A stretch of DNA of 64,000 bases from Sedimentisphaerales bacterium (lineage in GTDB: Bacteria; Planctomycetota; Phycisphaerae; Sedimentisphaerales; SM23-30), in the NCBI GenBank assembly GCA_963667715.1, contig OY763926.1, positions 3,230,177 through 3,294,176 of the forward strand, read 5' to 3'. Below are positions 19,801 through 47,005 of the stretch, in pieces. The notes under the pieces were generated by a model that worked only from the letters and a program-made list of their open reading frames with translations, was not told the DNA's origin and ran no database searches. Every line of letters starts with the position of its first letter. Position 1 is the first letter of the stretch. The translations under genes were made by a program, and so were the position numbers.

Positions 19801-20355
19801 ATCCATTGGCAATGCCGGAACATCAGCCCACCAATTAAAAGGTGAAACGCCGATCTGTTCGGAAAGGTCAAACACACCAAATGCTGTACCACGACGATCG
19901 CTACCGGCAATGACCAATGCTTTAGATATACCCTTGAAAGGTTTATCTACAACCTGACTTTGAAATGTTTCCCACTGGCCGTCGATAAAGGATACATCAA
20001 TTTTCTTCTGAGCAACCAGCTTATCAACCAGTCCGCCAGAACCAATAGTTCCCAGTATAATCACATTTCCTTTAACACCCTTGAGTTTATTACTAACAAC
20101 AGGACGTTTGCCAGTTACCTGCTCAAAGTCATTAGCCAGGCAATCAGCAACAATACGACATACAGTTGCTTCGTTAGAATCATAACATATACCGGCAACC
20201 TTTTTGCCGTCAAACAATACCATAGCACCAGCAGATGGCTGATCTGCGATAATAACAGAGCCCTTTTGCGGCGACGTTTGTCCATAAGATGCTGTTGAAA
20301 TGACAATAGTCAACAACACTGAAAGAATACACACATAGTACTTAAATAATTTCAT
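16840..20355 (-). CDS. Glycoside hydrolase family 115-like protein with C-terminal beta-sandwich domains
   Basis: 1171 aa with a signal peptide. The motifs FFINDEDWGLHPW and TLGMRGIHDSGM match my memory of GH115 catalytic modules. Confidence 0.75.
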   Translation of the reverse strand: MKLFKYYVCILSVLLTIVISTASYGQTSPQKGSVIIADQPSAGAMVLFDGKKVAGICYDSNEATVCRIVADCLANDFEQVTGKRPVVSNKLKGVKGNVIILGTIGSGGLVDKLVAQKKIDVSFIDGQWETFQSQVVDKPFKGISKALVIAGSDRRGTAFGVFDLSEQIGVSPFNWWADVPALPMDYIAVKADACYMGPPSVKYRGFFINDEDWGLHPWSRDNFSPEDEFVGPKTYTKVYELLLRLKANYIWPAMHECTKSFNIFEANKHVADDYAIVAGSSHCEQMLRNNTREWYLWEPADGTERGHWDWCQNSEHLIEYWRDRVKVNGPYESVYTLGMRGIHDSGMPCSGKDNHQKMLAMQNEIFPAQRQMLKEFVNDDVTKVAQIFCPYKEVLGLYRLGMDVPDDVTLVWPDDNHGYIRYLSTPEEQKRGGRAGVYYHVSYWGEPEDYLWLCSTPPALILEEMKKAYAYGADRVWVLNVGDIKPAEIATEFFLELGWDIDSVNFDNIDQYLGNWAGEKFPAFCKDEIADILYKYYQLGQQRKPEHTVRMGIGFSYINDGDEAQRRVDSYKELDDRALAVYHSLPEMYRDAFYQLVLYPVRCAGLVNEKILQAGRSRFYAQQGRVIANDLAKEAKYAYDQVEAETEYYNKRLADGKWDGMISSHPRDRQAFRMPDVGSVKPVNGASMGVVLEGQSRDLAAADIVAGEAFSDDFTMAELSDWSMTTPSRWEVRKQGDSVQLAINTTDFEPLSGDRLGEIALLKDRWYGDFELDCLVGSVENFNVNSAADLAIVFGYVDERNYNYMILTGSTVNTALFSVVNGNRKLITNCQHALTRGGMYPVKVVKKDGKFTVSYRGRQILDIKRNFADGAVGIGSYNDMASFAKFSVKPLNKAVLPDNSLPIFDVYTDNSYFVDIFNKGDKSFDYSISSPNKWISFTPASGNIEGQRRVELSINWAKAPSGTASGLVTVSGAGKDVTFNVKAFKPASPSVAEMENTAVMINGYACVEAENYSGETPGAQNFWKVIPTLGRTGNAVIPYPFTFDSITDVAKLSDTACLEYDFYTWENSSDIDVNIYCLPTHAANAERKLCYAVAVDGGPASMVEFDTEEYSHQWSVNVINGAALTTSKHKLSGAGRHKVKVWATDPGLILDKLVIGKLPETHCGPAETVVK

Positions 20356-20629
20356 AAGCTGTCCTCTCTAAAGTAAATGAGTACACATAAGTCTCCTTAC
20401 ACAATTAACTTGCATTATATTATCCTCATATAATTAGAAAACACAATCAGCGTATTAGTGCTTTTTATTGCAGGATAATAACCTGCCCCCCCAGAAAATA
20501 ATCTTAATTACACATTTGAAGTTAAGGCTGTTTTTAACATAAACACTTTAATTATTGAAATATAAGAGATTTAATTACCATTATACACCTAAAGACTATA
20601 GTGCAAAACGATTATTATCAGAACAGAGC

Positions 20630-22384
20630 TCAATTAGACTTTTCGAGCCATTTTTTAAGTTTTTTCCAAGGCATAGTATTAATAACATCAGCTTTTGATG
20701 CATACCCTTTTTGGGCAACAGCTACGCCAAGAGCCATAAGATTAAAACTGGCGGCATCATGAGAATCTGTATTGATGATAAGCTTAACACCAATATCAAC
20801 AGCTTGCCTAACATGTTCTGCTGAAAGATCGAGTCTGAACGGCTGACTGCTTACTTCCAATGCAGTATCAGTTTCAACGGCATGCTTAAAAATCATAGGC
20901 ATATCAAGGTCCATCGGCCTGCGATAGCGGATATATCGACCTGTCGGATGGCAAATACACTTAATATATGGATTATCCATCGCTTTCATGATCCGGGTTG
21001 TATTTTTCTCTCTACTACCTTCCATGCCATTATGAATACTGGCTGCTGCATAATCGAGCTGGGCCAAAACTTCATCTTCATAGTCAAGTGTGCCGTCAGA
21101 TAAAATGTCAACCTCGGAACCAGCTAGAATCTCAATATTCTTATAATTTGCATTTAGTACTTTTATTTTCTCAATCGCCTTGAGCAGGCGGTCAACAGAA
21201 AGACCATTTGCAATGATAGAACTGCGAGAGTGATCAGTGATGCAAATATACTCATATCCCATGCTTATTCCAGCCTCAACAAGTTCTTCAATGGAACTTC
21301 GCCCATCTGAAAATGGGGTATGCATATGGAGATCCCCACGAATATCCGAGAGTTGGACAACAACAGGGAGTTTTTTGGCCTGTGCCAGCTTCTGGGCGGC
21401 AGTATCATCTTGCAGAGTAGGAAGAATATACTGCAAGCCAAGCTTTTTATAGACAGCGGCTTCGCTAGAGCACTTTATCTGCTTTTCATTCTTAAATAGT
21501 CCACTTTCGTTAAAAATGAGCTTTTTCTTTTCAGCAGATTCACACAATAACTGCCTTTGAGAGCTACCAGGGGTAAGAAAGGCTAATACTCCGAATTCAT
21601 TATCAGGTGTACAGGTAAAAATTTCTACTTCACATGGTTTACGCCGTATATTATCTGATTTCCAGTTAAATTTAACCCTGTTTGGCCCTACTATAATAAA
21701 TTCAGTTACTCCCGGCATACCTGAAATAAACTCAAACATAACAGAGCTATCGGCAGTAACAGCAAGCAGGTCAATATCACCAACCGTTTCACAGCAGCGA
21801 CGAAGTGAACCAACAGCATATATGCGATCTATCAGCCCTGAGCTCCAAATTTGAGCCTTAAGGGCTTCCAGCATAACAATAGCACGGCCAAGCGGTATAC
21901 GGTCTTCAGTTTCAAGACGAAATTCAATATTAGCAGCAATATTAGCAGCTTTATTACGACCAAATCCAGATACCTTTTCTAACCTGCCGTCGCGAGCTGC
22001 AGCAAGCAAATCGTTAAGATTTTCAACTTTAATCTCTCGCCATAGCTTGCTAACAGTCTTGGTTCCCAAGCCATTGATCTTAAGCATCGGCAGTAACCCT
22101 TCAGGAATCTGCCCTAGTAATTGCTGATATTCACTAATTGTTCCAGTTTGAAAATACTCTCTGATACGCATTGCAGTAGCAGGTCCAATACCAGCGATAT
22201 CTTCTAACTGCCCATACTCATGAAGAATAGCAAAGTCCTCAACGCTATCAGCAATGATCCGTGCCACTTTGCGATTAGCCTTAATTCGAAAAGTATCTTC
22301 CTGAAGAATCTCCTGGATATCGGCTATCGATTCAAATAATTGTGCTAGAACAGTATTTGACACAGTACGCTCCTGACAGTTCAA
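20630..22384 (-). CDS. polX: Family X DNA polymerase with a PHP domain (PolX)
   Basis: 584 aa with HhH motifs (GIGPATAMRI), a nucleotidyltransferase motif (GSLRRCCETVGDIDLL) and a PHP motif (GDLHMHTPFSDG). Confidence 0.85.
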   Translation of the reverse strand: MNCQERTVSNTVLAQLFESIADIQEILQEDTFRIKANRKVARIIADSVEDFAILHEYGQLEDIAGIGPATAMRIREYFQTGTISEYQQLLGQIPEGLLPMLKINGLGTKTVSKLWREIKVENLNDLLAAARDGRLEKVSGFGRNKAANIAANIEFRLETEDRIPLGRAIVMLEALKAQIWSSGLIDRIYAVGSLRRCCETVGDIDLLAVTADSSVMFEFISGMPGVTEFIIVGPNRVKFNWKSDNIRRKPCEVEIFTCTPDNEFGVLAFLTPGSSQRQLLCESAEKKKLIFNESGLFKNEKQIKCSSEAAVYKKLGLQYILPTLQDDTAAQKLAQAKKLPVVVQLSDIRGDLHMHTPFSDGRSSIEELVEAGISMGYEYICITDHSRSSIIANGLSVDRLLKAIEKIKVLNANYKNIEILAGSEVDILSDGTLDYEDEVLAQLDYAAASIHNGMEGSREKNTTRIMKAMDNPYIKCICHPTGRYIRYRRPMDLDMPMIFKHAVETDTALEVSSQPFRLDLSAEHVRQAVDIGVKLIINTDSHDAASFNLMALGVAVAQKGYASKADVINTMPWKKLKKWLEKSN

Positions 22385-25009: not shown

Positions 25010-25123
25010 TTACAGCTCTCTCTTCTATATTATTAATATAATGGCAGATTTTATATGATAATGGATGATTTGACCAGTAATAACTGCCTGAAAGTTTAGA
25101 AGATATAAAGAAGCATTTAAAAT

Positions 25124-25148
25124 AAAGAAAACATCGGGAACACTTGGC
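25124..25148 (+). repeat. attL core direct repeat
   Basis: aaagaaaacatcgggaacacttggc is identical to 42891-42915. Extending 5 bp to the left gives 30 bp with one mismatch. Confidence 0.8.
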
Positions 25149-25269: not shown

Positions 25270-25363
25270 CACTAAAATATTATACTTCCTATCCAAGTAA
25301 AGGCAAGTATAATAATCGTAGAAATATTATTTTACGAGATCATTAGGTCTCAAAGGAGTGAAA

Positions 25364-27034
25364 ATGCCAAGGAAAAAAGGCACGAGTGTTAAAGATTTAT
25401 GGGTACCAGCACGTAAGGAAGTTAAAGGTACAAGGGTAAAATTTGTAGTAGATTTCAGGGATAAAGATAAGCCCAAAAAACAACAGCGATATCATGCAAA
25501 TATGTCATATGATGCCCATAATAAGCTATTCTATCTTTCGGATTGGGAGCAGCGTAAAGTAGCAGATGGTAAAAATAATGCAACAAAATTTAATTATGAG
25601 GTCTATCGAGGTGATGGAGACATGGCATGGGCGGAAGCAAGTTTTACTTACAGACTCAAATATGACAATGAAGAACGTATATTTATTGAGAAATTTGGGG
25701 CAGAAGTCTTACGAACAGATTATATACCAACGAAAATTGAGCCTACTACCGGTGAACCTGTAGGCTGGGACGAAATAACTATAGCGGAACCAACTGCAAC
25801 AGACATTATTTCGCTAAATTACGAACTCGAGGAATTCTGCCAAGAATGGTACAGACGTTATCTGCAAGACCCCAAAAAAATTGCTTTTAAAACTGGTATT
25901 CCCTTATTTGGACAGGATTCTATTATAAGACAAGTCCTTGATTATAGTCCAAATCAGAAAGTACTGATTGAAGATATTATTCAATTATATGTCGATTTTA
26001 AGAAGTTAAAGGATAGAAGTAAGCAACGAAGGAATAACAGGAAATACATGGAACATTTCTCAGCTTTTTGTAAAGCAAAATATATCCATCAAGTAGACGA
26101 TACAAAAGTTATAAAGTATAAAGCAAAATTAAAAACAGAAATTGAAGAAAACGATACTGTTAATCAACTGAATGCTACAATAAATAAATATACAATTGGG
26201 ATAAACGCCATTTTGAGCTTTTATGTTAATAATTATTTAGAACTTGCTCAAATTCATGATCTTGACAACAAAGAAATTGCTCGTAAAAAAGTCGAAGAAG
26301 TAAAAAAAATACATAACTTAACTCGTACTATCTTAAAAAAACAAAAAAGAGAAAAAGTAAAAGATAAACCACAGCCAATCTCCCCTAATGCCTTTAAAAG
26401 GCTTATTAATAAAGGTATAGATAATGGAGATCAGCAGGGATTACTAATGGCTTTATTATTATCGAATGGCGGTCTTTATAACATGGATTTGTCAGACATA
26501 AGAGTTAGCCACCTTAACACTTCATTTGACTCAAATGGAAAACAATTTTACTATCTTGATTTTCCACGCAGTAAAAATGATGTTGATAGAATTACCGTAC
26601 TATGGGACATTACACATAGATTATTAGTTGAACAAATCAGATATAATGAAGAAAAAGGTTTATATGATGGTATTAAAAATGACGAAGAAAAAGCCATATT
26701 TTACACATTAAATAAAAATAACCCCAAACCTGCCAATGATAATAATACACGATATATTTATAATCATTGTTTTGGTACCGACAATCTTCATGACAATGGC
26801 AAAAAACTTGGAATAAGACATTTTCGGGACACGCTCAAAAGAGCGTCTAAAGAGGCTAAAATAGATAGAACATATATTAGAACTGCTATTGGTCATACAC
26901 AAGGCGACTCTATGATGGATGAGTGTTACGATCATGTAACTCCCGTTGATATGATACAGGTAAGGGATTGCATGGCTGAATATTATAAGGATGGGCTAGA
27001 CCTAGTCAGAAATTCCTTGGCAAAAAGCAAATAA
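25364..27034 (+). CDS. Tyrosine recombinase / integrase (divergent, with a long N-terminal region)
   Basis: The C-terminus has box II-like IRHFRDT and AIGHTQGDSMMDECYDHV (H...Y). The ATG at 25364 is preceded by aaaggag; the track start at 25358 is a GTG. I could not place the first catalytic Arg with confidence. Confidence 0.7.
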   Translation: MPRKKGTSVKDLWVPARKEVKGTRVKFVVDFRDKDKPKKQQRYHANMSYDAHNKLFYLSDWEQRKVADGKNNATKFNYEVYRGDGDMAWAEASFTYRLKYDNEERIFIEKFGAEVLRTDYIPTKIEPTTGEPVGWDEITIAEPTATDIISLNYELEEFCQEWYRRYLQDPKKIAFKTGIPLFGQDSIIRQVLDYSPNQKVLIEDIIQLYVDFKKLKDRSKQRRNNRKYMEHFSAFCKAKYIHQVDDTKVIKYKAKLKTEIEENDTVNQLNATINKYTIGINAILSFYVNNYLELAQIHDLDNKEIARKKVEEVKKIHNLTRTILKKQKREKVKDKPQPISPNAFKRLINKGIDNGDQQGLLMALLLSNGGLYNMDLSDIRVSHLNTSFDSNGKQFYYLDFPRSKNDVDRITVLWDITHRLLVEQIRYNEEKGLYDGIKNDEEKAIFYTLNKNNPKPANDNNTRYIYNHCFGTDNLHDNGKKLGIRHFRDTLKRASKEAKIDRTYIRTAIGHTQGDSMMDECYDHVTPVDMIQVRDCMAEYYKDGLDLVRNSLAKSK

Positions 27035-30477: not shown

Positions 30478-32031
30478 ATGGTAAAAGATAATACAATAAA
30501 AGTAATCGATTTATTTGCTGGTCCAGGAGGGCTTGGTGAAGGTTTCTCATCCTACAATTCAGCAAACAAATGTTTCAAAATTGGAATATCCATTGAAAAA
30601 GACGAACATGCCCATATGACATTACTGTTACGGGCATTCTTTCGTCAATTTGACATCGGTAAAGAACCTCAAGAATATTTTGAATTTATTACTAAAAAGA
30701 GTTTTTCTAAAAAAGAATTAAACATACTCTTTGAAAAATTTCCTGAACAGAGTGAAGCTGCTATAAATGAAGCATTATGTTTAGAGTTAGGAAAAGACAA
30801 TAAGCAGATATTTAAAAAGATTCAAAAAGCTCTTAGTGATAACATTAAAAATAAAAAACCTTGGGTACTCATTGGTGGTCCTCCTTGTCAGGCATATTCA
30901 TTAGCAGGAAGAGTGAAGAATAACAGCAACTCAACTTATAACATTGATACTGATCATAGAAGCAAATTATATGAAGAATACCTCAGAATAATTGCCAGAT
31001 ACCAACCTAACGTATTTGTTATGGAAAATGTCAAAGGCATGCTTTCTACAAAAGTAGAAGGGCAAGCTATTGCTAATAAAATAATATCTGAACTTCAAGA
31101 TCCTTCAAATTCAAATATTAATGAAAAACCTGTATTTGGAAAAAGTTATACCTATAAACTATATTCGCTGGTACAAAAGTGCGATCCCAATAAAACCTTT
31201 TCTCCCAAAGACTTTCTAATTAGAAGTGAATTATATGGAATTCCTCAAAAAAGACATAGGGTTATCATTCTTGGAGTGAGGGAAGATTATGATTTGGGAA
31301 GCATCCCAACATTGAAACAAGGTAAGCTTGTTACTGTTCAAGATGCAATATATGATCTACCTCCAGTATATAGCAGATTTTCAAACAGACGGTCAAAGTT
31401 GAGTAACTTTGACAAGAAGTTACTTAAATATGATAATATTAAAATATTATTGAATGAGTTTTATAGCAACTTTTGCACTAAAGAGAAATTGACTGATAAG
31501 ACTATTGCTGAATATTTATCCAAATACGGTAACAGTGAAGGTAGCTCACAGCAGGTATTTAATAAAAAATGGTATTATAATCCAAGGTTAGATTCACATA
31601 CATGTAACCATGAAGCTAGAACACACATGCGTTCTGATATTTTAAGATATTTCTTTGTTTCCTGCTTTGGAAAAGCAAATTCTATTTCACCCAAAATAGA
31701 TAATTTTCCTAAAAGGCTATTGCCCGCACATAACAATATTAAAACAAAAACAGATTTTGTTGATAGATTCAAAGTTCAACTTGCAGACAAACCATCATCT
31801 ACAATAACATGTCATATTTCAAAAGATGGACATTATTACATCCATCCTGATCCTAAACAATGTAGAAGCTTAACAGTCAGAGAGGCTGCCAGACTTCAGA
31901 CATTCCCAGATGATTACTTTTTTTGCAGTAATAAGACAGAACAATACAAACAAGTTGGAAACGCAGTACCTCCGCTACTGGCAAGACAAATTGCAAAAAT
32001 TGTGTGGAACATACTCGCTAAACATACTTAA
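30478..32031 (+). CDS. dcm: DNA (cytosine-5)-methyltransferase
   Basis: 517 aa with motif I DLFAGPGGLGEGF, IV GGPPCQAYS, VI ENVKGM, VIII QKRHRVIILG, IX LTVREAARLQTFPDDY and X GNAVPPLLA. A long variable region lies between motifs VIII and IX. Confidence 0.92.
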   Translation: MVKDNTIKVIDLFAGPGGLGEGFSSYNSANKCFKIGISIEKDEHAHMTLLLRAFFRQFDIGKEPQEYFEFITKKSFSKKELNILFEKFPEQSEAAINEALCLELGKDNKQIFKKIQKALSDNIKNKKPWVLIGGPPCQAYSLAGRVKNNSNSTYNIDTDHRSKLYEEYLRIIARYQPNVFVMENVKGMLSTKVEGQAIANKIISELQDPSNSNINEKPVFGKSYTYKLYSLVQKCDPNKTFSPKDFLIRSELYGIPQKRHRVIILGVREDYDLGSIPTLKQGKLVTVQDAIYDLPPVYSRFSNRRSKLSNFDKKLLKYDNIKILLNEFYSNFCTKEKLTDKTIAEYLSKYGNSEGSSQQVFNKKWYYNPRLDSHTCNHEARTHMRSDILRYFFVSCFGKANSISPKIDNFPKRLLPAHNNIKTKTDFVDRFKVQLADKPSSTITCHISKDGHYYIHPDPKQCRSLTVREAARLQTFPDDYFFCSNKTEQYKQVGNAVPPLLARQIAKIVWNILAKHT

Positions 32032-32062
32032 TATTCAATAGTAATTGGAAGGATTATTATTT

Positions 32063-32323
32063 ATGTACGCCAAAGACATAAGATCCATTGCGAACGTTAA
32101 GGATTTTTTCAACTATCTTATATATATTGAAGATCTAAACTTTCATCCAGACACAGTATTTAATGACTATATATGCATACTCTCAAACAAAAGATCATTT
32201 AATGTCCAGCAAGCATCCCATTATCAAAAGTTACTTCAAAAAGCTTTTGATATATGCAAAAAAGATGAGGTATGTATTTATGATATTTGCCATGAGATTT
32301 TCTTAAACAGATTGGCTATATAA
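32063..32323 (+). CDS. Small hypothetical protein lying between dcm and vsr
   Basis: 86 aa counted from the ATG at 32063, which is preceded by ggaagga. Its stop codon abuts the vsr start (taaatg). No motif recognised. Confidence 0.5.
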   Translation: MYAKDIRSIANVKDFFNYLIYIEDLNFHPDTVFNDYICILSNKRSFNVQQASHYQKLLQKAFDICKKDEVCIYDICHEIFLNRLAI

Positions 32324-32743
32324 ATGGCAGACATTATCAGTAAAGAAAAACGTAGCTGGAATATGTCCAGGATTAAGGGAAAGGATACAAAGCCCGAACT
32401 AATTGTTCGCTCTCTCTTGCATAAAATGGGGTATAGATTCAGACTTCACAAAAAAGATCTACCAGGAAAACCTGATATTGTTCTACCAAAATACCAAACT
32501 GTTATTTTCGTGAATGGTTGCTTCTGGCACAGACATAAAAATTGCAAATATGCCTATCAACCAAAGAGTAGAATTGATTTCTGGGAAAAGAAGTTTTCAG
32601 ATACAGTTGAAAGAGATACAATTAAAAAAGCCGAACTGGAAAAGCTCGGCTGGAAGGTCATTATTGTCTGGGAATGTGAAGTAAAGCTACCATCTATAGC
32701 AGATACTATAAAAGAACAACTTGAACAGTCTAATTCACAATAG
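32324..32743 (+). CDS. vsr: Very short patch repair endonuclease
   Basis: 139 aa. The sequence SWNMSRIKGKDTKPELIVRSLLHKMGYRFRLHKKDLPGKPDIVLPKYQTVIFVNGCFWHRH is typical of Vsr. Confidence 0.9.
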   Translation: MADIISKEKRSWNMSRIKGKDTKPELIVRSLLHKMGYRFRLHKKDLPGKPDIVLPKYQTVIFVNGCFWHRHKNCKYAYQPKSRIDFWEKKFSDTVERDTIKKAELEKLGWKVIIVWECEVKLPSIADTIKEQLEQSNSQ

Positions 32744-35700
32744 CTGTTTGGATTCTAGTAGTTTTTCCATTTGCTCTGAATATTGCATCACCTTTTCCAT
32801 TTAATGATTCAGCTCCAGCTTCATCCATAATTACTTTACTTTCAATTGCACTTCTCACCCTTAATGCCATTTGTGCTGGAAGATTTGACCTTAATGTTGT
32901 ACTAATAACATCAGCACTAGGCTTTTGTGTAGCTATTATAACATGAATACCACAGGCTCTCCCTTTTTGTGCAATTCTTTTAAGAAGTCTTTCAACTTCC
33001 CTTTTTTCGTCCGGGTCAGAAGTTAGATCGGCATATTCATCCAGAACTAATACCCACCAAGGAACTTTACTTGATTCTTCGACACATGAGTTATACTCTG
33101 GAAGAGATCGTTTTTTGGCAGCTTTAAACATTTGATATCTATTCTGCATTTCATTTACTGCTTCTTCAAGAACAGCAATAGCATCTTCAGCATCCCATCC
33201 TATTGAGCCCTTTAAGAATGGTGAACTTTCGAAATCAACGAGTTCCGTACCTTTTGGATCTATCAGTAGCAGTTTAAGATCATTGGAATTGTAATAATAC
33301 TCCATCCCTTTTAGTATAGTATTCAACGCCTCTGATTTTCCTGAACCAGTGGTCCCACCTATAAGTAAATGAGGAGAATTGGAAGAGGAAAAGTCTATAT
33401 CAATAATATTACCAAACCTGTCTTCACCAAGTGGAACACTTAAGTGAGTCTCGTCAGGCACAGCCCATATACTCCACATTTTGTTTGCAAATACAAAATA
33501 TCTTTCTTCCGCATCCTTTGGAACATCAATATTAACATGTCCTTTATCAATAGAAAAACTAATAGAAGCATCTTCTGGAAGATTTAATTTCAACTTTAAA
33601 GCATCTCGTTGTTCTGTAATCTTATTCGGCTTAACTCCCTCACCAGGCTTTACTCTAAATAGAATTGAAGCTGGACCTTCAATATATCTTTCAAGATTCC
33701 CAGAAGGCAAATGTGCCTTTACTTTGAATTCACTTAAAGTGTCTATTATTATCTGATATTTCTCGTCAAGCTTTTCAACAGAAAGCGTTTTTGAAATCTC
33801 AGTATTAATGTCTTTTTCATCAGATGGTGGTTGAGGAGAAATTACTTCTACCCCATCGTCTTCGACTATTTCTGTATTATCATCATTTACACTTATTTCA
33901 TTCTGGTGATCTCCTGTAATATTATTTCCTAATAGCTTTAAGACTTCATCAGAATACGATTTGACAATAAGCACACCATCTTCTTCTAAAAGGATTTGCT
34001 CTTCATCAATACAATAATTGTACATCGAGAACAAACCATTGATTCTTTCAACTTCAAAGCTTCCTTCTTTAAAGTCACTTCTAATATCATCAGGAATTGA
34101 AGATATTGAATTAGTACTCCCATTTAGACGTTCCTGTTTTGCATACTCGCTTGTATTTTCTAGTGCTGACAGTATTTCTTTTCTCCATACTTTTGCATCT
34201 TTAGAAGGTATATTATTATTGTCAGTATTTAAAATTGACTCAAAAAGTTCCATGGTTTTTAAGACCTGGGTAACGCCATGGGAATCATATTGTTTACGCA
34301 TTTTCCCTTCAACAATCAATGCTTCTAATTTTAGAATATTACTCTGGTCATAGTAAAATGTAAAACGGCACAAATCTGCTCTTGTATTTGCAAACCAATC
34401 AGAATAATCATCCAAAGAAAACCAAATTGTAATATTATTTCTATTACGGGATGTATAATGTTTTTCTGCTATTCTCTTTGCAACAATCAGTCCAAGTATC
34501 TCTTCGGTAATCCTAGACAACCCCATAGCTCTTAAAACAAGACTTGGAGCCACTTCTCTAATCTCGTCATAAATTCTATCCGCTAAGACTGCCACGTTAT
34601 TATCAACTAAGTCCTTAAACCTCCCTCCAATAGCTTGAAGCTTTCTGGATAACCTGGATACAATAAACTTTTTACCGAAATTTGAAGAAACGACTAGGGT
34701 GTATAACCCATTCCTACCAACTCTTTCTTTTACTGTTAGTACATCTGGTTTATGTTCAAGGTTTTCAATCTGACTTCTACCTATATACTGATCGTATGTT
34801 ATTACCCAGTGCGAATACTCATGTAATTGTTCAAATAATTTTGCTGCATCACTAAACATTACTGCCATTTCAAAATAGTCAATATTTTGAGGTTGATTGG
34901 CTGCAATAAGATGACATCTCCTTAATCTTACATTCAATGTTGACCAGTCATTTAATGTATTATCTGGGTCATATGGTAAGAGGACAATTGACACTGTTCC
35001 ACTTGAATTACCCTTGTCAACGTAACTTGTCTCAACAAAAGGAACTTCATGTTTTCCGGGTCTTGAATAATCTTCTATTGTTCTTTCGTAAATCTCAACC
35101 TTGTTGCCAAAGAAATTTGGAATAATAGATAAATCACAAATAATATTATATGTGTCGATCTCTCCCCATTCATAAAACTTAAGCTGGAGCGGAGGAAATA
35201 ATTTCCCTCCTAACGCCATTCTGTTTTCTGATTCAATTCTTTCAAATTTTGAAGAAATATTATGCCAGTTATTTTTAGGCGTTACGACATGAAATGTAAC
35301 ATTTAGATTTTTCTTTGCTGACTTTCTAAGGCAACTCAAAAGCTGAACAGGGAATACGCCTCCACTAGGTAAAAGAGTTAAGATTGATATTCCATCTTTT
35401 TTATAAGGATGACTCTCAATATAAGATTCAACTTGCTTAGCAATTTCTTTTACAGATGCGTCATCTATAGTTTCAGTCAAAATACTACTTGATTTTTCTT
35501 CATCCTTAACAGGAGAGAAGTGTTCATTCCATCCCAACTCCGAGGTTGGAATCATAATATCTTTACTTTTTGTAACCAATACAGGAGGATATTTGTGTGG
35601 TGACAGGTTAGAAAGTTTTGAAAGGTATAATGTATCATTTTCCGTGTTCAAAACTAATTCCTGACTTAAGGCATCTATACAAAGTATTCTTAGATATTCA

Positions 35701-37706
35701 AAATACTTAGCAATCCAGTTAAGCCGAAATGGGTGAGTTGCCAACATCATTGCTTTATTATCGTTATCATAAGGTATGACATCCATCGAAAGAAATGAGG
35801 CAAGATTACTGTCAAATGAACCATTAGGAATAAGTTCATCTTTTGCACGCCTCTGTAATTCAGACCAATTTGTAACATATTCATTAATAAGATCAACACA
35901 AATACCTGCTTGAGACAAATCGTGAAAACATTCATTACGTAATTCCAACAAACTTTTTACTATAGTACAATTATTGGATGATTCAACAATTGCCATATCT
36001 GGAGAATCAGGTATAGGTATTAGCCTTGATGACGTAGATTTAACCCATTCATCAATTTCCATTCCATCTGGTAAAGAGTGAAAATTTGTTGCCTTTTCTG
36101 CTATAATAATCCATAATAGCGAAAGCCAGTCTATGTCTTCTGGTCTCCATACATAGTTTACCAGGCTGTCACATATCTCATCTGTTTTCTTATTTATCAG
36201 ACGAAATTCAATTGGTAAGTCTTCCCACTCAACAGGAGTAACCTCATCTTCACTCTCTTCATCATCTAAATCTCTTAGTTCAGGCAATGGATAGAAAGCA
36301 ATTAAATCCGCATCAATATTTATTTGCAATCCAGACACATCATCTTTAGATACATCCAGGATGGACTTTAATGTATTACCATATAGAAATGAAAATAACC
36401 CAAGTGAAGCATCTTTTGAGTCCACTCGCTTCCCTAACAATAGTTCTATAACATAGTCTGAACGATCATCATTCTGAATAGTAGAATCAAACTCTCTTAC
36501 AATTTCTACTAGCTGAATAAAAGGGTTTGAAAAAGGAATATTACGTGGGTACGCAACACGTTTGACCATTTTCAATGTTGTTTTTGAAATTATATCACAT
36601 AAAGCATCGCTATCTTCTTCAGAATCTGGTTCCTTATCTAGAAACTTTTGAGCATCGTCTGAAATTTTTCTAGATATACCATCCTTGACATCTAAAGACA
36701 AATACTCTTGCAATCTTTCTGGATTATTTTCGCCAATTTCCCGTTCAATTCTTTCTCCAAGTGGCACACCTACAACGTCTTTTGTAAAAAGTTGTTCAAA
36801 TATATAAAAAGGAATTTTTTCTCTTTGATCTCTTAATCGATGCAAGCAATAGGCACGACATAGTGTTTGCCATTTATTTTGCTCTTCTTCTACAAAAACA
36901 TTATTTGACAAGTCCTTAAAAGTCTTATTTAAAGCCTCATCTGCCAGCTCTTCAGGATCAAATTCTATGCCTTTTGAATTTGTTAATTCAGAGTAATAAT
37001 GATTATTTGCCAACCTCCTCTGACACATTGCATTGGAATTGTTTCCTTGCCATAGTTCATCTGGCATTAATCCCAACTCAACCAGCGATTTACCAATTAT
37101 TTTCTCCATATGATTCTTTTCGACGGGACCATCAATTTGAGACAAAACTTTACATGCATGATATGCAAAACGGCAAAAACTTCTTATCGAAACTGAAAAT
37201 ATTGACGGATGAAGCATTTCGATAACTTGACAAACCATCTCGACAAATTGGTTTGGGATTTTTTTATTGATTTCAAAACAATCCCAAGCAGCTAAAATCA
37301 CTTCTCTTTTAACATTAAAACGTTCATCATCCAAGCTACCATCCAGATAATTTCTATCTCGAATAGTAAACATTGACTCCAAACCTTGTTCATCACTTTC
37401 AATTTTGGTTTGGATATAAATTAGACCGTTCTGATTATTATTTCTGTAGTAAGTTATTGACTTATCCGGTTCGGCAACAAATTGTGCTGGAAATGCCTCA
37501 TGATTTCCTCTCGCAATAATTGTCTGCAATGTATTTAATGAAGAAAAACATGAATCCTCATTAAGATATCCCAAGAACGCTACTATTTCTTCAGGCTGTA
37601 AGTCTTTGACTCTAATACACGGTCTTGAACTATCTACAGATTCTCTTTCTAACTCATGTTTTATTATTATCAAAGAAATTTTTGCTATAATCTTATCTAT
37701 CATCAT
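32730..37706 (-). CDS. 1658-aa protein with a C-terminal FtsK/SpoIIIE-type motor; DptH/SspH-like by architecture (tentative)
   Basis: The last ~349 aa (32730-33779) align by eye to the FtsK alpha/beta domains: EGPASILFRVKPGEGVKPNKI, Walker A GGTTGSGKSE (about 33327-33360), Walker B VLVLDEYADL, IIATQKPS and LNGKGDAIF. The N-terminal ~1300 aa have no motif I recognise. Its start overlaps the stop of the upstream gene by 4 bp. Confidence 0.8.
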   Translation of the reverse strand: MMIDKIIAKISLIIIKHELERESVDSSRPCIRVKDLQPEEIVAFLGYLNEDSCFSSLNTLQTIIARGNHEAFPAQFVAEPDKSITYYRNNNQNGLIYIQTKIESDEQGLESMFTIRDRNYLDGSLDDERFNVKREVILAAWDCFEINKKIPNQFVEMVCQVIEMLHPSIFSVSIRSFCRFAYHACKVLSQIDGPVEKNHMEKIIGKSLVELGLMPDELWQGNNSNAMCQRRLANNHYYSELTNSKGIEFDPEELADEALNKTFKDLSNNVFVEEEQNKWQTLCRAYCLHRLRDQREKIPFYIFEQLFTKDVVGVPLGERIEREIGENNPERLQEYLSLDVKDGISRKISDDAQKFLDKEPDSEEDSDALCDIISKTTLKMVKRVAYPRNIPFSNPFIQLVEIVREFDSTIQNDDRSDYVIELLLGKRVDSKDASLGLFSFLYGNTLKSILDVSKDDVSGLQINIDADLIAFYPLPELRDLDDEESEDEVTPVEWEDLPIEFRLINKKTDEICDSLVNYVWRPEDIDWLSLLWIIIAEKATNFHSLPDGMEIDEWVKSTSSRLIPIPDSPDMAIVESSNNCTIVKSLLELRNECFHDLSQAGICVDLINEYVTNWSELQRRAKDELIPNGSFDSNLASFLSMDVIPYDNDNKAMMLATHPFRLNWIAKYFEYLRILCIDALSQELVLNTENDTLYLSKLSNLSPHKYPPVLVTKSKDIMIPTSELGWNEHFSPVKDEEKSSSILTETIDDASVKEIAKQVESYIESHPYKKDGISILTLLPSGGVFPVQLLSCLRKSAKKNLNVTFHVVTPKNNWHNISSKFERIESENRMALGGKLFPPLQLKFYEWGEIDTYNIICDLSIIPNFFGNKVEIYERTIEDYSRPGKHEVPFVETSYVDKGNSSGTVSIVLLPYDPDNTLNDWSTLNVRLRRCHLIAANQPQNIDYFEMAVMFSDAAKLFEQLHEYSHWVITYDQYIGRSQIENLEHKPDVLTVKERVGRNGLYTLVVSSNFGKKFIVSRLSRKLQAIGGRFKDLVDNNVAVLADRIYDEIREVAPSLVLRAMGLSRITEEILGLIVAKRIAEKHYTSRNRNNITIWFSLDDYSDWFANTRADLCRFTFYYDQSNILKLEALIVEGKMRKQYDSHGVTQVLKTMELFESILNTDNNNIPSKDAKVWRKEILSALENTSEYAKQERLNGSTNSISSIPDDIRSDFKEGSFEVERINGLFSMYNYCIDEEQILLEEDGVLIVKSYSDEVLKLLGNNITGDHQNEISVNDDNTEIVEDDGVEVISPQPPSDEKDINTEISKTLSVEKLDEKYQIIIDTLSEFKVKAHLPSGNLERYIEGPASILFRVKPGEGVKPNKITEQRDALKLKLNLPEDASISFSIDKGHVNIDVPKDAEERYFVFANKMWSIWAVPDETHLSVPLGEDRFGNIIDIDFSSSNSPHLLIGGTTGSGKSEALNTILKGMEYYYNSNDLKLLLIDPKGTELVDFESSPFLKGSIGWDAEDAIAVLEEAVNEMQNRYQMFKAAKKRSLPEYNSCVEESSKVPWWVLVLDEYADLTSDPDEKREVERLLKRIAQKGRACGIHVIIATQKPSADVISTTLRSNLPAQMALRVRSAIESKVIMDEAGAESLNGKGDAIFRANGKTTRIQTAIVN

Positions 37707-38989
37707 ATTAACCCTCTTGTACTTACCATCCTAGTAGCATCTGAATAATCTGTAATCAAACCGGCTGCTTTCATCTGGCAAGCAAGATACTCCTCGTTAT
37801 CCTCAAAAATACTAGCATCAAATACACTAAGCAAATTAGCTTTCTCTGCGGATTGACGCCCAACAATTAAGCCCCACTTACTATAAAATATTTCAGTAAC
37901 AAACCGCTCAAATGGTATTTCTGTTTCAGCATATGTGCCAGCAAGAACGAGTGTTTCCAGTAATTCAACACTAAAAGTAAAATGCCTTTTCCCCTTAAAT
38001 GAGTTTAACAACCCAATTGTTGCGCACGTAGAAGAGAAGAAACTGATGATCTTTCTTCTTTGAGCTTTTGCAAGAACGTCATCATCGTCTGCAAGCAAAA
38101 CGCACTTATCGATTGCATCTCCTATCATTGAAGAAATATCTTTCAGGCATCGTGCCGAAGCTCTTCTTATCTGACCTGGCGAAGAACCACAGTCAACTAT
38201 TATATTGACTATCTCACTATCAACATATTCAGATGCCCTTTTTGCCTGCATAATTGCCAGCCAAAAACCTGTCCAGGATATTACTGCCTTTATCCTGGAA
38301 GTACATGATAATTCACAATGAGATAAAATATTGCATAAACCATCCCTAAATACATCTTCAATTGAATCATTATTAACTTTACAAGCACTTTCTTTAGGAT
38401 CAGAAGATTCAGTGTCTTTTACTGAATGCTTTGACAACACGTCAGACAGCTGTTGCAATGGGGTTATTTGTTCTTCTGGATATAAACTTTTTAGTCCTTC
38501 TCTTATTACATCAACCCTTTGCTCATTAGGATCATCTCTCAAAACTCTGTGAGCTAAAGCTCCACCACCTCTTAAATATCTTCTTTCAATCTTTATTTTG
38601 CGACTTCTAAGCCTGGCATCCCAATGAATTAAAGAGCGGCAATAGGGAAAAAAATGAGCTCTTTCCCATGATGGTGTTTTATTTATATTAGGAATTGGCA
38701 TTTGCAAACACTCAAGCAGTTCTTTTACAACATTTTTAGCATTATCATTAACAAATGCCTCTTTACATTTATCTGTTGAAGCATAAGTATCAAAATCCCA
38801 TACTAATCTCCTTGCAAAATCATGAGATTCTTTGATAAATTTTATGTTTGACTCATTCGATAAAATATTATTTGAAGTAGCAGAGAATGTGAGATTCAGC
38901 AACTCCAGACCAGGATAATAACCTGCTGCATCAAAATCCAGTATGCCACCAAATATTTTAGTTGAAATTTCAGGACCTTTCATAATCAA
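37703..38989 (-). CDS. 428-aa protein of unknown function; DptG/SspG-like by position and size only
   Basis: Middle gene of the operon, with 4-bp overlaps at both ends (37703-37706 and 38986-38989). No motif recognised. Confidence 0.7.
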   Translation of the reverse strand: MIMKGPEISTKIFGGILDFDAAGYYPGLELLNLTFSATSNNILSNESNIKFIKESHDFARRLVWDFDTYASTDKCKEAFVNDNAKNVVKELLECLQMPIPNINKTPSWERAHFFPYCRSLIHWDARLRSRKIKIERRYLRGGGALAHRVLRDDPNEQRVDVIREGLKSLYPEEQITPLQQLSDVLSKHSVKDTESSDPKESACKVNNDSIEDVFRDGLCNILSHCELSCTSRIKAVISWTGFWLAIMQAKRASEYVDSEIVNIIVDCGSSPGQIRRASARCLKDISSMIGDAIDKCVLLADDDDVLAKAQRRKIISFFSSTCATIGLLNSFKGKRHFTFSVELLETLVLAGTYAETEIPFERFVTEIFYSKWGLIVGRQSAEKANLLSVFDASIFEDNEEYLACQMKAAGLITDYSDATRMVSTRGLI

Positions 38990-40827
38990 TTACCACCACT
39001 TGCTTGAATAACATTTCCTTCTTCTACAGACACTGTGAACACTTTACCATCAATAATGGCTTCAATACCATCGTTCGAAGTGTTTCCGTTCTCCGCAAGC
39101 CTGCCAAGAAAGTTAAGAACTCTTCTAATATCATGTGCATAAAAAGCTTGAGAAATATACCCCATGCCCGCTCTCATAAGATAATCAAATCCCATCAAAT
39201 CCAGACTATAACTAATCTTATCATTTCCCGGCATACTAATTTGGATAATAATTTCTCTTTCAAGCCAATTAACTGTTTTGCTAATACTATTGGGTTCATT
39301 GACACTATTCCAGTTTTGGGATTGACTGACAAGATTAATACTTTTGCTTGGGATCTTACAAGCAACTATTGCAGCTTTGTTAGTCGCATTTCCAAAAGCA
39401 GGGTCAACAAGATACAAAGAAGTCTCTTTTAGCCCAAGATTTAACCCCTGTATTGTATGGAGCCCGGCAATTAGATTTTGTTTAATTTTTGCTTTTCTCG
39501 TAGGTTGATCATCCTGACCTTCAAGTATCCAATAAAAATCATCAGCATATTCAAAACCAAGCCTTTTCGTCATATCTACTTGTCCTACATTGTCAAAGAA
39601 ACTTCTTCTACGTAGTGTTTGAACAATTGTCTGAACCAATTCAGCTTCTCTATTCCTTTCCTGCCTACTTCTTGCATTGCCAATTACTTCATCTATACCA
39701 TTTGAAGCGTCAATTATATCATTGCTTATACCATCTTTGAAACATAGATCAATCTCATTTCCATTGAATATTCCACCTTCATTAATAATATGATCATCTA
39801 TCTCTCTAATTGATATCGCTCCAGGATCAAGAGGGAAAATAGCTGACAACACTGGTATTCTTGAGATTTTATCTTTCGAAATACTTGCAGGTGTTTTGAA
39901 AAGTAGAGAGTGGTACGCATACTCATGTTGCCACCCCTCTTTATTTCTTCTTTTATGCACATCTTTACAAGTAAGCCCTCCGGTAAGTAGATAGGCTACG
40001 ACCATAAGCATCTCACGCAAAGTTATTACTGTGCCCAAACGTTCCGAAATAGAAAAAACTTTTTGCAGGTTATCTATTCTGGAAGGATGTTTTTCATCAA
40101 ATAAAGCATCACGGTTATTTTTTATTGGGCAGCAGTGACTACAGCTGCATTCACTACAAACTTTCCATCTAGTTCCACTTATCCATTTTTGTAAAGTTTC
40201 TCTTATTAAATTATCTTGAATTAAATCAGATGAAATAGATTGATAATTTAAATTAATTATAAACCATTTTCCATTAGAAGTAGCTAAACCGTTAGAAAAT
40301 GAATCATGAAAATCGCTATAAAAACTTGAAACACTTTCATTTTCTTTTATACCAGACTCTAAAATAGCTCTTAATCTTCCTTCATTTACACATATTAAAG
40401 TTATAGCTTCTTCACCAGTAATTGCCTGCTCAAACCTATTCCCCGCAATATCAATAGAAAACTCTGAAAAATCCTTGAAGATCCGTAGAGGCTTAACATC
40501 CAAGCCACTATCAACATGTGAAATAATATCATCACCATTACATTTATCCAATAAAAGCATCCTGGCTGTTTCATCATCATACCCCAAATAACTTTGGAGG
40601 AGCCTTCTGCAAAGATGGGTCTTTCCATGTCCCGCATCACCCGTCAACACTATGGCAACTGGATCTTTTGCTGCCAATACACTCTCTAAATACTCAAGCG
40701 ATTTCGTTTCTAGTTCTAATGAATCTTTTCTTTCTGCATATTCCTCATAAATCTGGTCATGAGAAGGGTCAAAAGGAAGATATTGATGCAACCGTGTAAC
40801 GTGACTATTTGTTTTATTTTCTGCCAT
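38986..40827 (-). CDS. 613-aa P-loop NTPase with a Cys cluster; DptF/SspF-like by position and size (tentative)
   Basis: Walker A is VLTGDAGHGKTHL (about 40618-40650). The Cys cluster is WKVCSECSCSHCCP (40124-40167). It is the first gene of the operon. Confidence 0.75.
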   Translation of the reverse strand: MAENKTNSHVTRLHQYLPFDPSHDQIYEEYAERKDSLELETKSLEYLESVLAAKDPVAIVLTGDAGHGKTHLCRRLLQSYLGYDDETARMLLLDKCNGDDIISHVDSGLDVKPLRIFKDFSEFSIDIAGNRFEQAITGEEAITLICVNEGRLRAILESGIKENESVSSFYSDFHDSFSNGLATSNGKWFIINLNYQSISSDLIQDNLIRETLQKWISGTRWKVCSECSCSHCCPIKNNRDALFDEKHPSRIDNLQKVFSISERLGTVITLREMLMVVAYLLTGGLTCKDVHKRRNKEGWQHEYAYHSLLFKTPASISKDKISRIPVLSAIFPLDPGAISIREIDDHIINEGGIFNGNEIDLCFKDGISNDIIDASNGIDEVIGNARSRQERNREAELVQTIVQTLRRRSFFDNVGQVDMTKRLGFEYADDFYWILEGQDDQPTRKAKIKQNLIAGLHTIQGLNLGLKETSLYLVDPAFGNATNKAAIVACKIPSKSINLVSQSQNWNSVNEPNSISKTVNWLEREIIIQISMPGNDKISYSLDLMGFDYLMRAGMGYISQAFYAHDIRRVLNFLGRLAENGNTSNDGIEAIIDGKVFTVSVEEGNVIQASGGN

Positions 40828-42845: not shown

Positions 42846-42890
42846 TTTTGGAAAAAGTGACCCTTGTTTTTGGGCGTATAAAGCGGAAAA

Positions 42891-42915
42891 AAAGAAAACA
42901 TCGGGAACACTTGGC
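42891..42915 (+). repeat. attR core direct repeat
   Basis: Identical to 25124-25148. Confidence 0.8.
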
Positions 42916-43890: not shown

Positions 43891-44002
43891 AAGTTGGCGG
43901 CAACTTACTTTCACGCTCACGCACTATCATCAGCGTAAGTGCCTTAGCTTCTGAGTTCGGAAAGGGATCAGGCGTTTCACACTTACTATGACCACCAACA
44001 GT
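43891..44002 (-). rRNA. rrf: 5S ribosomal RNA
   Basis: The reverse complement reads tgttggtggtcatagtaagtgtgaaacgcctgatccctttccgaactcagaagctaaggc...gttgccgccaac. It contains the conserved CCGAACUCAGAAG box and a helix I closing pairing. Ends are approximate. Confidence 0.85.

Positions 44003-44147: not shown

Positions 44148-44150
<3 letters not shown>
44118..44150 (-). other. 23S trailer half of the processing stem
   Basis: cttaaccgtatggtacagttcaaaaataatgtg is near-reverse-complementary to 47005-47041. This includes a 19-bp run (two G-U pairs) adjacent to the mature ends. Confidence 0.6.

Positions 44151-47004
<2,854 letters not shown>

Positions 47005-47005
<1 letters not shown>

Follow-up and report, generated by a model that had tools for sequence, protein, structure and literature searches.

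A methyltransferase-linked SspFGH-like gene module as a candidate methylation-based defence system

A minus-strand operon of three genes, designated F, G and H, lies convergent to a dcm-vsr unit in the window (the whole 64-kb stretch of DNA analysed) and belongs to a clade in which F-G-H is coupled to genes for a C5-cytosine methyltransferase (C5-MTase) and Vsr. The existence of this clade suggests a methylation-based variant of the FGH phage-defence system that has yet to be described. We put the probability at roughly two in three that the genes form a restriction-modification (R-M)-like system, in which Dcm would mark self DNA, F-G-H would attack unmarked DNA, and Vsr would limit the mutagenesis that accompanies 5-methylcytosine (5mC).

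Organization of the gene block and its carrier element

The dcm-vsr-H-G-F block spans 10.35 kb. On the minus strand, F (38986..40827) codes for a 613-aa SspF/DndF-like P-loop (kinase-type) NTPase, G (37703..38989) for a predicted SspG/DndG-like DNA-binding subunit, and H (32730..37706) for a predicted SspH/DndH-like multidomain nuclease-translocase of 1658 aa. On the plus strand, dcm (30478..32031; 517 aa) codes for a Dcm-type C5-cytosine DNA methyltransferase and vsr (32324..32743; 139 aa) for a Vsr very-short-patch repair endonuclease. ORF lengths of 613–1658 aa at 34% GC are far above chance expectation, and the ORF calls exactly reproduced the positions and sizes given for the three minus-strand genes in the initial annotation. 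Its proposal of 4-bp ATGA overlaps at both junctions proved correct for G/H (37706–37703), but the F/G junction (38989–38986, minus strand) reads TTGA. G may start at this TTG (428 aa) or at an in-frame ATG (38983–38981) located 2 nt past the F stop, which is the start chosen in the public gene call (426 aa, P0148); a 4-bp overlap thus exists at both junctions, provided that G begins at TTG. At their 3′ ends, the convergent vsr and H genes share 14 bp (32730–32743), in line with the convergent, overlapping arrangement described before.

The dcm product scored 150 bits against TIGR00675 and Vsr 148.1 bits against TIGR00632, both above the curated NCBIfam cut-offs (100.65 and 97.85, respectively), and the two genes are adjacent on the same strand. 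Judged from its sequence, Dcm has all catalytic motifs intact (FAGPGG, GPPCQ, ENV, QKRHR and GNAVPP, representing motifs I, IV, VI, VIII and X). Its best PADLOC match is DrmMII (1.8e-92), and it falls into one cluster with the MTases adjoining F-G-H in 68 related loci. Compared with E. coli Dcm and Vsr, both proteins are ordinary members of their families. The small ORF between the two genes (32045..32323, plus strand; 92 aa) has no match in Pfam, NCBIfam or PADLOC, and tblastn across 87 loci retrieved zero homologues; it does not belong to the conserved components and might not be a gene at all.

The GC content is 0.30–0.36 over about 25–43 kb of the window, as compared to 0.40–0.44 in the flanks. 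Two att-like 29-nt direct repeats, identical at 28 of 29 positions, lie 17,767 bp apart at 25120–25148, where the left copy coincides with the GC drop, and at 42887–42915. Between them are a serine recombinase, a DUF3987 protein, a weak integrase-like ORF and an AlpA/Xis-like HTH ORF. These sequence features agree with the mobile island proposed earlier and support the assignment of dcm-vsr-H-G-F to a 17.8-kb integrative element bounded by the repeats. Related loci are not consistently found on mobile elements; one (L038) is located beside recBCD, and the Streptomyces loci are beside gltX.

Relationship of F, G and H to phosphorothioate-linked systems

F matches the PADLOC SspF model over its full length (E = 7.3e-55, 185 bits) as well as Pfam AAA_22, while the PADLOC DndF model gave only 1e-7. 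More than 560 homologues were retrieved, the best 120 of which share 43–54% identity. The P-loop and the Cys knuckle that had been noted in the 613-aa protein were both recovered. The Walker A motif GDAGHGKT (residues 63–70; 40618..40641, minus strand) is invariant in 23 homologues. In the Walker-B-like strand LICVNEGR (residues 144–151; 40375..40398, minus strand) Asn replaces Asp, and C146, N148, E149, G150 and R151 are invariant in the same alignment; DndF has been described with Asn in Walker B (PMC10853773). The cluster CSECSCSHCC (residues 224–233, in a segment of residues 224–234 at 40126..40158, minus strand), with C224, C227 and C233 invariant in the 23 homologues, is a probable Zn-binding insert of the kinase lid. 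A Zn-chelating lid insert is present in some DndF proteins (PMC10853773).

The SspG model matches G with E = 3.1e-18 (64 bits), the alignment being limited to C-terminal residues 308–422. There is no Pfam match, consistent with the original description of a 428-aa protein devoid of motifs, a length that applies to the TTG start. For the AlphaFold model of G (pLDDT 92.9), the top PDB fold match is DndG (7EXX), albeit a weak one (probability 0.66, TM 0.38). The family comprises 155 representative clusters among 1.84 billion proteins. By these alignments, G has diverged from the phosphorothioate (PT)-linked systems more than F and H have, and because its similarity to SspG is limited to the C-terminal ~110 residues, the N-terminal two-thirds would be the best candidate for the modification-discriminating part.

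H matches SspH of PADLOC with E = 2.3e-89. Its N-terminal 1300 residues retrieved 27 homologues, every one of 1635–1730 aa, and a structure model of residues 1–1200 reached a pLDDT of 81.5. A fold search with the model returned Rossmann SAM-methyltransferases (probability up to 0.99), as expected since DndH has a dead methylase domain. The motif-IV-like segment (residues 853–866; 35109..35150, minus strand) reads DLSIIPNFFGN, with a family consensus of FDIAVVPNFFGD, and D858 is invariant in the homologue alignment; as PNFF stands where NPPY/F is expected, the methylase-like domain is probably inactive. The PD-(D/E)xK nuclease core (34296..34412, minus strand; SLDD...RADLCRF...LIVEGKMR) contains D1099, D1111 and E1133-G-K1135, and the residues D1099, D1111, E1133 and K1135 are all invariant in 22 homologues. 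An FtsK alpha domain and FtsK/SpoIIIE motor (residues 1304–1658; 32733..33797, minus strand) form the C-terminus, supported by Pfam matches to FtsK_alpha (8.8e-8) and FtsK_SpoIIIE (6.5e-34) and by a match to the solved FtsK structure 2ius (4.2e-46), which bears out the complete alpha/beta motor assigned earlier. Walker A (GGTTGSGKS) and Walker B (VLVLDEYAD) of the motor are invariant. Assignment of H as a cellular full-length FtsK with membrane anchor, linker and alpha/beta/gamma domains was rejected (NF007615, 158 bits versus a cut-off of 1566), the aligned residues being only ~1304–1656. The conjugative translocase TraB was likewise rejected as an identity for H (NF041214, alignment of the motor domain only).

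The likeness to DptFGH/SspFGH asserted in the initial annotation thus holds for its Ssp part, with all three proteins matching PADLOC models, but not for its Dpt part, as the DptF, DptG and DptH NCBIfam profiles (TIGR dnd_assoc) produced zero matches to F, G and H at E ≤ 0.01. On profile evidence, F, G and H are true homologues of SspF, SspG and SspH. They form a sister clade, separate from PT-linked SspFGH, because their PADLOC scores are far below those of genuine PT-linked members: SspF and SspG of the latter reach 773 and 621 bits, as compared to 185 and 64 bits for F and G. The F proteins of two MTase-linked tiers score ~270 bits to each other, but only 50–83 bits to PT-linked SspF.

SspABCD-SspFGH of Vibrio anguillarum FF-93 (Wang et al. 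2021, PMC8092258) shares with the present locus the F-G-H order with overlapping genes, the Walker A motif of F, the FtsK-like C-terminus of H and, presumably, the logic of a DNA mark labelling self. It differs in its linkage to sspA-D, in place of which the window and 68 of the 80 related loci surveyed have a C5-MTase with or without Vsr. PT-linked SspF is 21–27% identical to F, and PT-linked SspG has 510–561 aa, as compared to ~430 aa for G, with the C-terminal ~110 residues in common. With DndABCDE-DndFGH/DptFGH of Salmonella and E. coli B7A, F shares the canonical Walker A, the Asn in Walker B and the Zn-type insert, and G has DndG as its best fold match, whereas the linkage to dndA-E is absent here. 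The “clade 2” DndH proteins (Rakesh, Aravind and Krishnan 2024, PMC10853773) resemble H in combining a Rossmann methylase-like domain with eroded motif IV, PD-(D/E)xK, and FtsK-alpha plus FtsK. The layout of DndH further comprises N-terminal DNA-binding parts of SF2-like, HTH and beta-sandwich type as well as TRDs, whereas the parts recognised in H were the methylase-like fold, the nuclease motif and the motor.

Linkage of F-G-H to C5-methyltransferases

The neighbourhood was surveyed in 80 non-redundant related F-G-H loci from other species. The gene order was kept in 77–79 of 82 loci. A C5-MTase was present at 68 of the 80 related loci (85%), its distance from F-G-H never exceeding 5 kb; it was found within 1 kb in 55 loci and within 3 kb in 66, with a median gap of 380 bp, even though sequence within 3 kb makes up only 46.5% of the flank searched, and no MTase was located at 5–10 kb. 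The MTase gene occurs upstream or downstream of F-G-H on either strand (27/20/17/4). Vsr was present in 52 of the 80, and besides these two no neighbour family recurred in more than 8 loci. Of 66 linked MTases, 63 retained motifs I, IV and VI, and the survey did not find a conserved cognate type II nuclease beside the linked MTases. Separate look-ups revealed the same pairing in a JGI metagenome and another JGI contig, in Mycobacterium, Alteromonas and Phenylobacterium. The coupled clade covers about 70 species of Pseudomonadota, Actinomycetota, Verrucomicrobiota and others, and the linkage persists where the gene order is shuffled and extends over two tiers that are only 30% identical and come from different phyla.

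The twelve loci devoid of an MTase include five on contigs that break off, two in which Vsr adjoins H where the retrieved DNA ends, and one with a ParB-N6/N4 methylase instead. Four or five loci (L038, L061, L065, L073 and perhaps L088) lack a nearby methylase despite complete flanks, so that F-G-H might also occur on its own or have its partner farther away.

Tblastn searches of 1.8 Mb of loci and of the 64-kb window with genuine SspD, SspA and SspC gave matches confined to two PT-linked comparators; the window itself was negative, in keeping with the reported lack of dndA-E and sspA-D genes in the island. Neither a DndC/SspD-type PAPS reductase nor a cysteine desulfurase was found in any locus, and dnd/ssp modification genes were present at 0 of the 80 related loci. 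Conversely, PT-linked relatives have no C5-MTase of the linked type.

Mantel correlations of 0.99 (F-H) and 0.985 (F-G) identify F-G-H as a tightly co-evolving unit. The correlation between F and the MTase is 0.70 overall, but 0.23 in tier A (p = 0.005) and 0.47 in tier B (p = 0.002); within-tier co-evolution is therefore weak, and shared host phylogeny could account for part of it. F-G-H modules that are ~80% identical occur with MTases sharing only ~24% identity, and none of the G or H segments shows a corresponding change. Strict sequence-specific recognition of a cognate site would hardly accommodate such non-orthologous swaps. Where the MTase has been replaced, the new enzyme is again a C5-MTase at every locus but one.

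Proposed function, alternatives and implications

In the system proposed, the C5-MTase would methylate host DNA at its own recognition motif, and the F-G-H complex would be the restriction arm, composed of the kinase-type P-loop NTPase F, the DndG-like multi-wHTH DNA binder G, and H with its putative DNA-recognition domains, dead methylase-like domain, PD-(D/E)xK nuclease and FtsK motor. By analogy to DndFGH/SspFGH, the complex would load on dsDNA, translocate at the expense of ATP and nick or cleave DNA that lacks the mark. 5mC would take the protective role that phosphorothioate has in Dnd and Ssp, and Vsr would repair the T:G mismatches arising from 5mC deamination, lowering the mutational cost of the mark. 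From the gene linkage to C5-MTases we infer that 5mC is the signal read by F-G-H; the analogy further suggests that it inhibits rather than activates the complex, and that invader DNA ends up nicked or cleaved. For SspFGH, DNA with PT modification counts as self (PMC8092258), loss of dptBCDE in the presence of dptFGH leads to SOS induction (PMC12707154), and the DndFGH complex has DNA nickase and translocase activities (PMC11662687). DISARM (DrmMII) and Druantia (DruM) likewise use a C5-MTase to mark self on behalf of a large ATP-dependent effector. Unlike in these systems and in Dcm-Vsr pairs, the effector here would be an SspFGH-type complex rather than DrmABC, DruE or a type II nuclease, genes for which were not found among the island proteins scanned. 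MADS of Pseudomonas aeruginosa SMC4386 (bioRxiv 10.1101/2023.03.30.534895) also combines the use of methylation to tell self from non-self with an FtsK/HerA-type ATPase, but consists of eight genes including a kinase and an N6-adenine methylase with specificity subunit (motif TCAGNNNNTCC), as opposed to the C5 enzyme here. The H motor matches PADLOC mad8 (3e-26) and G weakly matches MAD7 (3.7e-4); membership in MADS was rejected, as these matches are domain-level only (MAD7, 19.7 bits versus a cut-off of 410; MAD8, 15.8 bits versus 175).

The linkage data are compatible with every model that makes F-G-H dependent on 5mC. The mark could act as an activating or licensing signal, host 5mC recruiting or stimulating F-G-H against invaders, or F-G-H could guard the methylase and fire when an invader blocks methylation. 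MTase swaps without change in F-G-H fit such a generic requirement for 5mC, and PT stimulates the NTPase and nicking activities of SspE (PMC8092258). However, SspE shows no relationship to any of F, G and H, and in the homologous DndFGH and SspFGH the mark labels self DNA and so averts attack, which makes this explanation improbable. Those swaps also bear on a form of the self-marking reading that we regard as tentative and rather doubtful: as C5 methylases that are not orthologous serve F-G-H modules that are nearly identical, F-G-H complexes might be modification-agnostic restriction engines whose self-mark is exchangeable in evolution, the present clade reading 5mC itself, largely independent of the motif.

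Rakesh et al. (PMC10853773) regarded DndFGH as having no inbuilt modification module and linked cytosine methylases only to CxC-ATPase/DndE systems, with Vsr nowhere mentioned; they argued that DndFGH-type modules are standalone and triggered by other cues. Applied to this locus, F-G-H would be self-sufficient and Dcm-Vsr a functionally separate neighbour, such as a solitary methylase acting against other restriction systems or a type II R-M remnant in a defence island, much as the initial annotation had considered under independent cargo. Some loci indeed lack a nearby MTase, within-tier co-evolution of F and the MTase is weak, and defence genes are known to cluster, one locus (L090) having an additional BglII-type R-M system next door. 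We nevertheless consider such independence of the two modules unlikely, given 85% linkage across phyla at a median of 380 bp with none at 5–10 kb, its persistence through gene-order shuffling and across the two divergent tiers, replacement of the MTase by another C5-MTase with a single exception, the lack of a conserved cognate type II nuclease, and the PT-linked relatives, which do without such an MTase. A role of the FtsK-type protein and its partners outside immunity, in moving or segregating the DNA of the mobile element by TraB-like conjugative dsDNA transfer, was the other option raised originally. It accords with the genuine FtsK alpha/beta motor and the location on an integrative element, but is very improbable in view of the TraB score (53.5 bits versus a cut-off of 800), the invariant PD-(D/E)xK motif and ~1300 residues of SspH-like domains in H, the inconsistent association of related loci with mobile elements, and conserved neighbours that comprise only the methylase and Vsr.

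In the searchable literature, no description of F-G-H paired with a C5-MTase was found; FGH modules are presented there as partners of PT modification or, in the latest comparative analysis, as standalone modules without a modification module of their own, and current defence finders would assign such loci at best to a catch-all category such as “DMS_other” of PADLOC. Stable, clade-wide coupling to C5-MTase and Vsr implies that one and the same nuclease-translocase engine is able to change targets, from a mark on the backbone to a mark on a base, and offers a testable explanation for many “orphan” FGH loci. If 5mC were read as a chemical class, rather than as methylation of a cognate site, this would be the first restriction system blocked in such a way, and much of the “orphan DndFGH” paradox, namely the occurrence of FGH in many more taxa than complete Dnd, would be explained. 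PT-reading and 5mC-reading related machines would form a natural pair for studying how modifications are sensed, with the divergent N-terminal region of G as the first place to look.

Gene layout and identity of F, G and H

The block comprises three minus-strand genes resembling sspF, sspG and sspH, referred to as F (38986–40827, 613 aa), G (37703–38989, 428 aa) and H (32730–37706, 1658 aa), and a plus-strand unit of a C5-cytosine methyltransferase gene (dcm, 30478–32031, 517 aa), a small ORF (32045–32323, 92 aa) whose stop codon abuts the ATG of vsr, and vsr itself (32324–32743), coding for a very-short-patch repair endonuclease. The ORF layout described in the initial annotation was reproduced, as was the convergent overlap, in which vsr and H share 14 bp at their 3' ends. 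The ATGA overlap reported for both internal junctions is present between G and H, whereas the F/G junction actually reads TTGA; an in-frame ATG two codons past this TTG is the start of G in the public gene call (426 aa). The 92-aa ORF showed no family match and was rejected as a conserved fifth component, since a homologue is absent from every related locus; the ORF may be confined to this strain or may not be a real gene.

The PADLOC models of SspF (7.3e-55, full length), SspG (3.1e-18, C-terminal residues 308–422) and SspH (2.3e-89) matched F, G and H, respectively, in agreement with the postulated SspFGH homology. The DptF, DptG and DptH profiles in NCBIfam, suggested as a check in the initial annotation, recognized none of the three proteins. 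F, G and H thus fall outside the curated Dpt profiles, and membership in the Dnd/Dpt families is therefore not claimed. NCBIfam contained no family for F or G and returned FtsK-type matches confined to the last ~350 residues of H; likewise, a sequence search of the PDB left F and G unmatched and matched H at the FtsK motor only.

In Pfam, F was assigned to AAA_22. The GDAGHGKT motif and the Cys knuckle noted previously are both present and both conserved; F combines a canonical Walker A motif with a Walker-B-like segment (LICVNEGR) containing an invariant Asn, and with an invariant Cys cluster. These traits match the published description of DndF (PMC10853773), in which a P-loop kinase carries Asn in its Walker B motif and may have a Zn insert in its lid. 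For G, described as devoid of motifs, the Pfam search was indeed empty. The predicted structure of G (pLDDT 92.9) had a single above-background fold match in the PDB, DndG (7EXX), which was weak (probability 0.66, TM-score 0.38), while the model of H residues 1–1200 (pLDDT 81.5) retrieved Rossmann-type SAM-methyltransferases and nothing beyond these, with TM-scores that are low because the model is multidomain.

H ends in an FtsK motor, as proposed (Pfam FtsK_alpha and FtsK_SpoIIIE). Its 27 homologues, all of 1635–1730 aa, share the FtsK Walker A and B motifs, an invariant nuclease signature (D1099...D1111...E1133-x-K1135) and a segment resembling methylase motif IV in which NPPY/F is degraded to PNFF. 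These features would fit the plan of DndH, namely inactive methylase, REase and HerA/FtsK domains in this order, and in particular that of "clade 2" DndH proteins, which possess FtsK-alpha (PMC10853773). Judged by their sequences, the methylase and Vsr of the window are typical of their families and apparently active.

Linkage to C5-cytosine methylases and Vsr

More than 560 homologues of F were found, the best 120 of which share 43–54% identity and occur in many phyla. Selection of one genome per species resulted in 80 loci in two tiers: tier A (40–54% identical) is made up mostly of Pseudomonadota and Verrucomicrobiota and includes one Mycobacterium, and tier B (27–33% identical) consists mostly of Actinomycetota. 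An exhaustive census of G yielded 155 representative clusters with 68 strong matches, which points to a family of broad but infrequent occurrence.

When every neighbouring ORF at 82 loci was clustered without bias, H (79/82), G (77/82), a C5-methylase (68/82, in a cluster that includes the dcm product of the window) and Vsr (36/82) emerged as the only four recurrent partners of F; the next most frequent family occurred at 8 loci only. A search at the DNA level of the 80 non-redundant loci detected a C5-methylase at 68 and Vsr at 52, and the association was seen again when identical proteins were looked up in further collections. At two loci, L034 and L041, both genes were recovered by tblastn, spurious antisense ORFs having masked them. 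All methylase genes lie within 5 kb of F-G-H (median gap 380 bp), 55 of the 68 within 1 kb and 66 within 3 kb, although the 3-kb zone represents only 46.5% of the flanking DNA searched. Their position is variable: they may precede or follow F-G-H, in either orientation. Such close linkage combined with shuffled position and orientation is the pattern expected of functional coupling rather than of inherited synteny.

The 12 loci without a C5-methylase comprise five truncated contigs, two in which Vsr adjoins H at the border of the retrieved sequence, four with full flanks, and L030 of Sulfitobacter sediminis, where a ParB_N-N6_N4 DNA methylase is encoded 1.3 kb downstream of H (19585–20889), so that the partner has possibly been swapped for another methylase class. 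L041, from an Acidimicrobiales MAG, has G, H and the methylase broken into several short ORFs (12000–19600) and looks like a decaying copy. In Phenylobacterium sp. LH3H17 (locus L090), a second C5-methylase, Vsr and fragments of a BglII-like endonuclease (15688–19278) directly follow the methylase-Vsr and F-G-H genes, a case of defence-island stacking of two 5-methylcytosine (5mC)-based systems. Other neighbours were an HATPase_c_3 protein of ~424–490 aa between or beside Vsr and the methylase in three loci (L003/L007 of Mycobacterium sp. M23085, L014 and L072), an HNH-motif protein in four (L015, L018, L020, L025) and an Mrr-like nuclease in two (L009, L024), which may be accessory or back-up effectors.

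Distant relatives of F on plasmids of Crocosphaera and Candidatus Tenderia served as controls. These are genuine SspFGH loci linked to phosphorothioate (PT) modification, with SspD matches of 1e-115 and 1e-137, respectively, and additionally SspA in Crocosphaera; C5-methylases are absent from both. The PADLOC bit scores of control F and G were 773 and 621, as compared to 185 and 64 for the window proteins. Since control F shares only 21–27% identity (50–83 bits) with both tiers, whereas tiers A and B match each other at ~270 bits, the methylase-linked loci form one clade by sequence similarity, separate from the PT-linked systems. The initial annotation had seen no PT-modification genes in the island; across 1.8 Mb of sequence, tblastn with the control SspD, SspA and SspC detected none in the whole window, nor at any of the 80 loci.

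F, G and H have evolved in concert (Mantel r 0.94–0.99). Between tiers, the divergence of the methylase matches that of F (r = 0.70), but inside each tier the correlation is loose (r 0.23 and 0.47, p ≤ 0.005); in Nocardia versus Streptomyces, F-G-H are ~80% identical while the C5-methylases share ~24% identity. Where F-G-H were otherwise conserved, no segment of G or H stood out as co-varying with the methylase (partial r −0.28 to 0.39). At least six methylase lineages are involved, with motifs I, IV and VI kept in 63 of 66 enzymes. The partner is thus replaceable, nearly always by another C5-cytosine methylase, and such non-orthologous exchange suggests that the kind of mark counts more than the particular enzyme.

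The mobile element and its surroundings

The assignment of the block to a mobile island was upheld by low GC content (0.30–0.36 versus 0.40–0.44 in the flanks), recombination-type genes inside and a bracketing 29-nt direct repeat (25120–25148 and 42887–42915, 28/29 identical), probably attL/attR. The block occupies 10.35 kb of the 17.8-kb element, which also encodes a serine recombinase, a DUF3987 protein, an AlpA/Xis-like HTH protein and a putative integrase of 558 aa (25358–27034) that a model for site-specific integrases recognized only faintly (E = 3e-4). The GH115, BACON and DUF3987 genes of the window are suggestive of Bacteroidota.

A 5S-23S rRNA unit directly adjoins the element, with 5S rRNA at 43892–43999 and a complete 23S rRNA at 44148–47005, both on the minus strand. 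No 16S rRNA or tRNA gene was found in the whole window, including the 17 kb upstream of the 23S rRNA gene (47–64 kb), and the pair looks like an unlinked rRNA unit. Just beyond the left end of the island, a PolX-type protein with HHH, pol-beta thumb and PHP domains is encoded on the minus strand (20630–22384), next to genes for a 599-aa protein without family match and a SpoIIE-type phosphatase. A 2007-aa ORF (54029–60052, plus strand) is located downstream of an HlyD/OEP efflux-type cluster.

Proposed mechanism and relation to known systems

The observations are best explained by a restriction-modification-like system, in which Dcm would label self DNA, F-G-H would form an ATP-driven restriction arm blocked by 5mC in the way PT blocks DndFGH and SspFGH, and Vsr would offset deamination of 5mC. 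As precedents, SspFGH treats PT as self (PMC8092258), dptFGH is toxic without dptBCDE (PMC12707154), and nickase and translocase activities are described for DndFGH (PMC11662687). G is the subunit most remodelled with respect to PT-linked systems (~430 aa versus 510–561 aa, with only the C-terminal ~110 residues aligning), which would make it the leading candidate for the subunit that senses the modification.

Three alternatives were considered. 5mC might act as an activating signal rather than as a block, a reading that would likewise tie F-G-H to the kind of mark. F-G-H might instead be a standalone system with an unrelated Dcm-Vsr pair as neighbour: Rakesh et al. (2024) treated DndFGH as lacking a modification module (PMC10853773), and four loci with full flanks have no C5-methylase; the linkage at most other loci speaks for coupling. 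A role in DNA transfer would accord with the FtsK motor and the location on a mobile element; the nuclease signature of H and its recurrent methylase partner fit the restriction-modification-like reading.

Such a system would work like SspABCD-SspFGH and DndABCDE-DndFGH, but the PT-gene linkage defining these is missing. MADS follows an analogous logic, but with eight genes and an N6 methylase, and was rejected as the identity of the system on composition. Rakesh et al. (2024) described cytosine methylases solely alongside CxC-ATPase/DndE systems and made no mention of Vsr (PMC10853773), a 2025 review listed FGH only as PT-linked, and targeted searches of the open-access literature retrieved no named C5-methylase-linked FGH system; the label that automated annotation would likely assign is the PADLOC catch-all "DMS_other". 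The system is a sister clade of the PT-linked ones with a different modification arm.
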